A stretch of 64,000 bases of DNA, from contig CAVSBL010000002.1 of assembly GCA_963726255.1 (NCBI GenBank), positions 480,001-544,000 of the forward strand. The letters run 5' to 3'. Position numbers and translations under genes: made by a program. This stretch comes from Candidatus Bathyarchaeota archaeon. GTDB taxonomy: Archaea; Thermoproteota; Bathyarchaeia; 40CM-2-53-6. This document shows, one piece after another, positions 20,770-21,013 of this stretch (positions are counted from its first letter, which is position 1; every line of letters begins with the position of its first letter). The notes under the pieces are model-generated. The model saw only the letters and a list, made by a program, of their open reading frames with translations, had not been told where the DNA came from and made no database searches.

Positions 20770-20921
20770 TGGTGCGGCCGCCGGGATTCGGACCCGGGTT
20801 TCCCCGTTGCTATTATGCAACTTTGAGGCTTGGGAAGCCCCCGTCATAGACCAGGCTGCCCTTCCAACCTCTCCAGGTTGGGAACTGGACCACGGCCTAA
20901 TGGAGCAATCCATGCTCACGC
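20770..20921 (-). tRNA. tRNA-Gly(CCC) with three BHB introns (3/4, 15/16, 45/46) and encoded CCA
   Basis: Exons 20921-20919, 20896-20885, 20855-20823 and 20799-20770 join to GCGGCCGTGGTCCAGCCTGGTCTATGACGGGGGCTTCCCAAGCCTCAAACCCGGGTCCGAATCCCGGCGGCCGCACCA, a cloverleaf with a 7-bp acceptor stem. Each intron has a 4-bp central helix and two 3-nt bulges. Confidence 0.92.
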
Positions 20922-21013
20922 ACTCAGAGTCCAGCCACGACGACCGCAAATCGAGAAAGCTCGAGCTCACAATAAAAATCTCCCGACTCCAGCGGAAGAA
21001 ATAGAAGCGTGGA

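Follow-up and report, generated by a model that had tools for sequence, protein, structure and literature searches.

The closest described counterparts of the gene considered here are the multi-intron tRNA genes of the Thermoproteales. Certain tRNAs of these archaea carry an intron at position 3/4, and 45/46 is also among the known insertion positions (PMC4090602, citing Sugahara 2007, 2008); 15/16 is not named in the list of intron positions given in that paper, which ends in 'etc.'. Three introns within one gene have been described in tRNA-Pro(UGG) of Pyrobaculum islandicum, at 25/26, 37/38 and 56/57 (PMC4090602), and an excerpt of PMC8450103 gives three introns per tRNA gene as the archaeal maximum, the record for a genome being 71 introns in 46 genes. 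In the split and tri-split tRNAs of Nanoarchaeum equitans and Caldivirga maquilingensis, a leader or trailer sequence provides one strand of the splicing motif and keeps the pieces joined for EndA, the splicing endonuclease, and for the ligase, according to passages of PMC4090602 and PMC4033280. Here we analyse a stretch of 64,000 nucleotides (hereafter the window) from a Candidatus Bathyarchaeota archaeon (assembly GCA_963726255.1, contig CAVSBL010000002.1, positions 480,001 to 544,000). On its minus strand, window positions 20770..20921 hold what we read, with a probability of roughly 0.88, as a functional, single-copy Bathyarchaeia tRNA-Gly(CCC) gene, which carries at positions 3/4, 15/16 and 45/46 three short introns of the protein-spliced kind.

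This locus shares with the Thermoproteales cases the presence of up to three short introns with bulge-helix-bulge (BHB) or relaxed HBh' motifs, non-canonical positions that include 3/4 and 45/46, a heterotetrameric (alpha-beta)2 splicing endonuclease, EndA (here predicted), and a fast turnover of introns between relatives. It differs from them in its host, which belongs to the Bathyarchaeia and is not a hyperthermophilic crenarchaeote, in the combination of introns at 3/4, 15/16 and 45/46 without a canonical one, and possibly in a conserved leader with copies of the acceptor strand. The split tRNAs resemble it in that a leader contributes to a BHB, and in that tRNA-Gly isoacceptors are among the disrupted genes of Caldivirga, as excerpts of the same two papers (PMC4090602; PMC4033280) report. 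Unlike the split tRNAs, the gene described here would be a single transcript spliced in cis, whose leader is not removed by EndA and needs to be trimmed at -1/+1. With the canonical 37/38 intron of hBHBh' type the three introns have in common the 3-4-3 bulge-helix-bulge geometry and the same enzymes, whereas they lie at other positions, have a relaxed motif with an outer helix of 1 bp, and draw on leader, D stem and anticodon stem for their central helices, in competition with the cloverleaf.

Read from G1 (20921) to an encoded CCA (20772-20770), the minus strand presents GCG followed by an insert of 22 nt; 12 nt from the acceptor and D arm, followed by an insert of 29 nt; 33 nt that complete the D arm and include an intact anticodon arm with CCC, followed by an insert of 23 nt; and a final segment of 30 nt comprising T arm, 3' acceptor strand, A73 and CCA. 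Exon 1 (20919..20921) consists of G1, C2 and G3, of which G1 and G3 are invariant, and C2 is present in at least 90%, among the 18 orthologs described below; exon 2 (20885..20896), which covers positions 4-15, is invariant across them. Exon 3 (20823..20855) covers positions 16-45 and has an uninterrupted anticodon arm, and exon 4 (20770..20799) extends from position 46 to A73 and CCA and has an unusual C at T-loop position 55 (20791). When the four exons were joined by their coordinates, ARAGORN recognized a 78-nt tRNA-Gly(ccc) ending in CCA, whose stems have 7 (acceptor, G:C pairs throughout), 3 (D) and 5 bp (anticodon) and whose variable loop has 4 nt. A tRNA-Gly has an NCC anticodon and, in archaea and eukaryotes, the identity set C2:G71, G3:C70 and A73; the spliced product carries G1:C72, C2:G71, G3:C70, A73 and the anticodon CCC. 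Gene identity, anticodon and intron positions are all as an earlier note, drawn from the letters of the window, had proposed, and they hold in silico for each of the 18 orthologs. Every coordinate and helix which that note named is present in the sequence, and a canonical 37/38 intron is absent, as the note stated.

Standard detection of this gene fails, as is expected for its intron architecture. ARAGORN called no tRNA at the unspliced locus when run on the window, or in the 221-nt locus with introns enabled, and the unspliced window had no Rfam match at gathering thresholds. In a genome-wide run the Rfam tRNA model gave the locus only 18.6 bits (E 0.4), the gathering score being 29. Our own BHB-guided, SPLITS-like search, anchored on the T arm and CCA, gave exactly three introns of 22, 29 and 23 nt after sequential mature positions 3, 15 and 48. 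An intron-less tRNA-Gly(CCC) elsewhere in the genome, which the earlier note had named as a counter-case, was looked for and not found; indeed no second Gly(CCC) gene of any kind was detected there. Only this one of 32 sequences resembling a CCC anticodon arm lies in a tRNA context, and BLAST of the spliced product against the genome returned only two other Gly-like tRNAs.

In the BHB register, a 4-bp central helix (H) is followed on both strands by a 3-nt bulge that is cut after its second nucleotide (PMC4090602). All three introns fit this register exactly, with H paired at 4/4 positions in the window. Intron 1 (20897..20918, 22 nt, position 3/4) has the H AGUG/CAUU and a 5-bp inner stem, GAGCA/UGCUC; its bulges are C2-G3-U and A-G-G4, the 3' strand of H (CAUU) lies at 20902-20899, and three of the four nucleotides of the 5' strand lie in the leader. 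Intron 2 (20856..20884, 29 nt, position 15/16) has the H GUCC/GGGC, and its inner stem consists of one pair, a mismatch and then 7 bp (CCAACCU/AGGUUGG). Intron 3 (20800..20822, 23 nt, position 45/46) has the H CCUC/GGGG and a 5-bp inner stem, GUUGC/GCAAC. A strict hBHBh' motif has at least 2 Watson-Crick pairs in both outer helices, as defined in a passage of PMC7714728. Here h' has 5, 1+7 and 5 bp, respectively, and h is a single base pair at each intron in every one of the 18 orthologs; judged from their sequences, the three introns are of the relaxed HBh' type.

The 5' strands of the three H helices are drawn from the leader and G1 (intron 1), D-stem positions 10-13 (intron 2) and anticodon-stem positions 40-43 (intron 3), and because of this borrowing each BHB competes with the cloverleaf fold. 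The use of the 5' leader by the intron 1 motif, which the earlier note had pointed out, stands, but it is not peculiar to this gene, since any intact BHB at 3/4 needs nucleotides -3 to -1. A register of intron 1 at 2/3 was also considered and rejected, as H would not pair. Three orthologs in which intron 1 ends in UA exclude it as well, and they fix the junction at 3/4 with no sliding ambiguity.

The comparative evidence is, at the level of sequence, decisive for the reality of the gene and its introns. When 41 related genomes were searched for the locus at the DNA level, full-length matches turned up in 19 of the 23 genomes of the genus, this genome included. Our alignment contains 18 orthologs and omits two loci, L015, with a divergent 5' part, and L020, which belongs to another genus. 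The same splicing rule, with three separate introns removed from one gene, restored a canonical cloverleaf and a 78-nt tRNA-Gly(CCC) in ARAGORN for 18/18 orthologs. The exons have a mean identity of 98.5%, with 9/78 positions variable and five distinct mature sequences, whereas each intron occurs as 16-18 distinct sequences with 45-65% identity and with lengths of 18-24 (intron 1), 19-31 (intron 2) and 20-24 nt (intron 3). The pairing of H is nevertheless kept. In intron 1 it is complete (4/4) in all 18 orthologs, with the 3' strand variants CAUU, CACU and CGCU and a two-sided compensatory change, AGCG/CGCU, in L006; in intron 2 it is likewise complete in 18/18, with the variants GGGC, GGAU and GGAC; and in intron 3 it is 4/4 in 15 orthologs and 3/4 in the other three. 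The inner stem of intron 3 changes on both sides, from UA to CG, in six sequences. Taken over the alignment, the structure described above pairs 97.6% of cells, and displacing the partners by 1-3 columns lowers this to 33-57%; three pairs change on both sides.

Beyond the genus, we searched the order with a sequence pattern, which matched in 46 of 105 genomes. We read 20 loci from other genera, one of which was N-masked in its 5' part; our script solved 13 of the remaining 19. Introns are present at 15/16 and 37/38 in genera g2 and g3, at 37/38 only in family f7, and at 15/16 and near 37/38 in one g7 genome, while three genomes of families f6 and f8 have no intron. These intron-less Gly(CCC) genes run straight through all three junctions and align with the spliced product without gaps over 75 columns, with 65/75, 61/75 and 61/75 identical positions. 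The 45/46 intron was seen in this genus only, and the 3/4 intron here and in one other genus of the family, g15; the 15/16 intron is more widespread and occupies the same position in g2, g3, g15 and part of g7. For a third g15 intron, in the anticodon-stem region, the search script gave no solution. Among the related genera the number of introns thus runs, as a natural series, from zero to three, with five different positions occupied, and such turnover across the order is consistent with the spreading introns that the earlier note had postulated.

That note had also postulated a permissive splicing endonuclease and left its subunit type to be read from the genome. Two encoded proteins, of 188 and 187 amino acids, placed at C2:748279-748530 and C2:1451759-1451998 respectively, contain the N- and C-terminal domains of EndA (PF01974 and PF02778). 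The 188-residue protein has a match with an E-value of 7.7e-41 in PDB chain 3p1z_B, whose deposition names a tRNA-splicing endonuclease, and is aligned with it at Tyr, His and Lys positions and across a loop insert. We take chain 3p1z_B to be the catalytic alpha subunit from Aeropyrum pernix; the Tyr, His and Lys are presumably the catalytic triad, and the insert presumably the crenarchaeal specific loop. In an alignment to the Methanocaldococcus jannaschii enzyme, the 187-residue paralogue is without the His-bearing segment, and it is most likely a structural beta subunit. The presence of two paralogues, one of catalytic type and one without the His segment, indicates that the predicted EndA is of the crenarchaeal (alpha-beta)2 type. 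According to passages of PMC5829648, an insert of this sort is found in enzymes of the (alpha-beta)2 and epsilon2 types, and these also cleave introns at non-canonical sites. As far as the gene sequences tell, the host endonuclease is thus of a type that goes with relaxed motifs, in agreement with the postulated permissiveness. RtcB is also encoded, and an archaeal RNase P RNA was found in the genome.

Upstream of the gene, a TATA-like box, TTTTTATT (20971..20978, minus strand), is aligned in the orthologs. Nine of the 14 tRNA genes of this genome that have such a hexamer have it 23-30 nt from G1, while the distance is 49 nt here; the leader is therefore predicted to be ~26 nt long, with transcription starting near 20947. 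In the alignment of orthologs this putative 5' leader (20922..20947) comprises three conserved blocks separated by variable linkers. Block 1, which begins 23 nt downstream of the TATA-like box, is GCGGUCG (20947-20941), or GCGGCUG in 5/18 orthologs; it is a copy of the 5' acceptor strand with exactly one wobble, and is complementary to the 3' acceptor strand at 7/7 positions. Block 2, GGCUGG (20936-20931), repeats positions 3-7 and so contains a further, incomplete copy of the acceptor strand (GGCYG). Block 3 is GAGU (20925-22), and its last three nucleotides together with G1 form the 5' strand of the intron 1 H.

The heptamer of block 1 could be taken for the true 5' acceptor strand, in which case everything between it and U8 would be removed, either as one long (48-nt) intron or by a nested two-step splice, and the tRNA would be leaderless and not need RNase P. 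The heptamer does sit where tRNA 5' ends normally lie relative to the TATA box (23 nt), and it pairs at 7/7 positions with the 3' acceptor strand. Once intron 1 has been taken out, the two acceptor copies can form a BHB-like fold, GGUC/GGCC, and tRNA-Cys of the same genome has a similar, truly ambiguous arrangement. However, no BHB can be drawn for a direct 7/8 splice, since CGGU and AGGC do not pair. In the nested model, leader position 8, which is U, A or G, would become position 8 of the tRNA, whereas the U8 adjoining exon 2 never varies. A wobble would, moreover, be present in the mature acceptor stem at a species-dependent place (UC in 13 orthologs and CU in 5), while all other genera have GCGGCCG. 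We rejected the leader copy as an exon in both its single-intron and its nested form, and consider it very unlikely.

Several observations weigh against a functional gene with three introns as we have described it. The outer helix h is limited to 1 bp at every intron, and none is a strict hBHBh' motif. The search score has little weight by itself: the value of 18.5 obtained for the real sequence was matched by 1/150 dinucleotide shuffles when three introns were freely deleted from 450 nt, and 20/150 shuffles scored at least 17. Four genomes of the genus, with completeness of 75-89%, gave no full-length match. In L015 (G003:C15) no standard BHB can be drawn for intron 1, because the AG of the 3' bulge pairs with an upstream CU. 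The start of transcription near 20947 derives from TATA spacing only. Parts of the stretch are contained in 20 public sequencing runs, and the four RNA runs examined contained one unspliced contig of a relative (~92% alike) and no spliced joint, which is uninformative either way on splicing. Finally, tRNA-Gly(UCC) might also read GGG, so that the gene need not be essential.

The shuffles and the lack of spliced RNA in the runs examined are what would be expected if the cloverleaf were a chance product of three free deletions, or if the locus were a decaying, unexpressed pseudogene. Against this, the exons have remained nearly identical while the introns of 18 species have diverged and yet kept their BHB pairing, and the spliced product aligns without gaps to intron-less homologues. 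The locus is also the only Gly(CCC) gene found in the genome and has a conserved TATA box. Chance or decay is on these grounds extremely unlikely, and we retain the tRNA-Gly(CCC) gene with its three introns. As regards L015, the region upstream of the 3' half of its intron 1 is unrelated to the conserved leader; its 5' divergence could reflect a longer intron, a rearrangement or an assembly problem.

The geometry of the gene suggests an order of processing. The precursor would start ~26 nt upstream of G1, EndA would cut six bonds in the bulges and RtcB would join the exons. Intron 1 would have to be excised, and the exons on either side of it joined, before RNase P trims the leader, because three of the four nucleotides of the 5' strand of H belong to the leader and exon 1 has a length of only 3 nt. 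This is a reasonable deduction from geometry, and it owes to the 3/4 position itself, so that the same order would hold for any such intron. The precursor would be expected to refold between steps, because the BHBs of introns 2 and 3 each use one strand of the D stem or the anticodon stem.

The leader is conserved beyond the few nucleotides which H takes from it. All three blocks are kept in 18/18 orthologs and in 2/2 g15 genomes with intron 1, in which block 2 is GGCCGG, and they are absent from 17/17 readable loci without intron 1. Since this genus (g1) and g15 are perhaps sisters, the shared occurrence of blocks and intron 1 could go back to a single evolutionary event. Over the 30 nt upstream of G1 the mean pairwise identity is 0.59, as compared with 0.33 for the Gly(UCC) control of the same genus (17 loci). 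Block 1 variants are always compatible with pairing (UC or CU) and never involve a transversion. RNAalifold paired block 1 with the 3' acceptor strand, and RNAfold predicted the same pairing in every splicing intermediate that still carries the leader.

These features raise the possibility, to our minds a doubtful one, that the leader is a purpose-built helper, acting as a tether or as an RNase P lock, for an intron that lies only 3 nt into the tRNA. As modelled, the leader, paired with the 3' acceptor strand or with exon 2, would block the true acceptor stem, and RNase P could then not remove the leader nucleotides that form the intron 1 H. The leader would also tether the 3-nt exon 1 to the tRNA body between cleavage by EndA and ligation by RtcB. 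Once ligated, the perfect GCGGCCG would displace the weaker mimic with its one wobble, thereby exposing the RNase P site.

To the alternative that the blocks have no role in RNA folding we give a little under an even chance. They would then be a relic of tandem duplication, or a promoter-proximal or initially transcribed element, and only nucleotides -4 to -1 would matter. Other tRNA genes of this genome carry duplicates of their 5' ends that resemble plain tandem duplications (C2:1127690-1127890; C2 + 2206595). The pairing of block 1 shows no two-sided change and cannot be tested by covariation, because its partner is an invariant exon, and the self-complementary GGCC core allows several pairings. 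The persistence of the blocks in two genera while the linkers vary, the lack of conservation in the Gly(UCC) control leader and the restriction of block variants to those that can pair speak, however, against this alternative. Three further leader pairings were examined, and none was adopted. Pairing of the block 2 GGCU with the last intron nucleotide and G4-C6, as drawn by RNAalifold, would bury the 3' splice site; pairing of the block 2 CUGG with CCAG (positions 12-15) is broken in g15, with its GGCCGG block; and RNAfold on the single sequence paired the leader far into the T arm with a part that is not conserved.

Duplicated 5' sequences were also observed at other tRNA genes of the genome. 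The tRNA-Cys(GCA) gene (L082, G000:C2:667330-667570, minus strand) has an exact second copy of its 5' acceptor strand, GCCGGGG, upstream, separated by a variable linker of 4-6 nt. The first copy is at the normal TATA distance, and both copies are present in 11/11 orthologs caught by a regular expression, out of 19 loci. The self-complementarity of CCGG permits two readings of the pair, one with a copy in the leader and the other with a bulge-helix-loop mini-intron of 12 nt at 7/8, and the mature tRNA is the same in both. If the Gly(CCC) leader acts as proposed above, the conserved tRNA-Cys copy suggests that the genus uses such a device more than once. Tandem duplications of the 5' end lie just upstream of L083 (G000:C2:1127690-1127890) and of a tRNA with its T arm at C2 + 2206595; one is a repeat of ~20 nt that includes the acceptor strand and the other a degenerate copy of the first ~15 nt. 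An extra site complementary to the acceptor at 7/7 positions within 30 nt upstream is found in 4/32 anchored tRNA genes, Gly(CCC) and Cys counted, where ~0.6 would be expected from a non-cognate control rate of 0.196 per 330 nt.

The genome as a whole is rich in introns, and its tRNA genes are strongly disrupted. Only 17 loci scored above the Rfam tRNA threshold, although the genome (G000) is rated 98.5% complete. ARAGORN, run genome-wide, placed an intron in 31/35 predictions and returned two standard intron-less tRNAs, some of the introns being kilobases long and certainly wrong. Our own inventory, which was made with an ad hoc script and is no substitute for tRNAscan-SE, solved 11 of 32 T-arm/CCA anchors at a score of at least 18; 14 had no solution, and seven had low scores and are likely false. 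The 11 solved genes hold 17 introns, or ~1.5 per gene by this ad hoc search, which is comparable to the published record holder.

The T loop of tRNA-Gly(CCC), UCCGAAU, has C instead of the near-universal U at position 55 in 16/18 orthologs, the other two having U. The same C55 occurs in 17/17 Gly(UCC) orthologs (L038, G000:C2:925470-925660) and in a tRNA with its T arm at C2 + 28314; in all, it is found at 3/32 T-arm anchors of the genome, and pseudouridine-55 could not form in these tRNAs. Another anchor, an orphan T arm with a 3' acceptor strand and CCA at G000:C2 + 134669, lies ~1 kb after a tRNA (T arm + 133641) to whose corresponding part it is nearly identical. No matching 5' acceptor strand was found within 330 nt upstream of the orphan, which could be the 3' half of a split gene or a remnant. 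Among the public contigs that carry the same Gly(CCC) exon, 11/14 belong to metagenome-assembled genomes (MAGs) of Bathyarchaeia or Bathyarchaeota and three to MAGs with bacterial labels. The latter (L022, L023 and L033) are labelled Acidiferrales, Methylomirabilota and Acidoferrum, and are probably mis-binned or mislabelled.

A further candidate intron lies in the neighbouring gene for elongation factor 2 (EF-2; 24268-22050, minus strand), as the earlier note had suspected. A 29-nt insert (24204-24176), 64 nt after the ATG (24268), forms a strict BHB, in which the central helix is UCCG/CGGA, each of the two bulges has 3 nt and the inner stem has 8 bp. Its removal joins a short upstream frame to an open reading frame of 713 amino acids, giving a 729-residue EF-2 whose N-terminus runs into the GTP-binding motif, whereas the unspliced reading stops after 23 codons. 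This mRNA intron looks real from its sequence. The known case of such an mRNA intron is cbf5, as an excerpt of PMC2738675 describes, and a literature search found no report that brings together BHB, cbf5-type mRNA introns and EF-2.

Three-intron tRNAs and the 3/4 intron are already known from the Thermoproteales, and what is new here is the lineage; a literature search on tRNA introns in Bathyarchaeia found no report, only a footnote and a study of rRNA circularisation. Apart from the lineage, novelty could lie only in the conserved leader with its mimicry of the acceptor strand. The use of the leader by 3/4 introns may already be described in the supplements and figures of Sugahara 2007 and 2008. 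For annotation, the consequence is that standard tools miss the gene, and that 'missing tRNAs' in such MAGs are not real gaps. The finding extends extreme fragmentation of tRNA genes beyond the hyperthermophilic Thermoproteales, to a genus of Bathyarchaeia in which one gene has three introns, one of them inside the acceptor stem and none at the canonical site, and it is relevant to how EndA type and intron load have evolved together. If its proposed role is true, the leader mimic would amount to a simple RNA device for ensuring that splicing precedes trimming of the 5' end.

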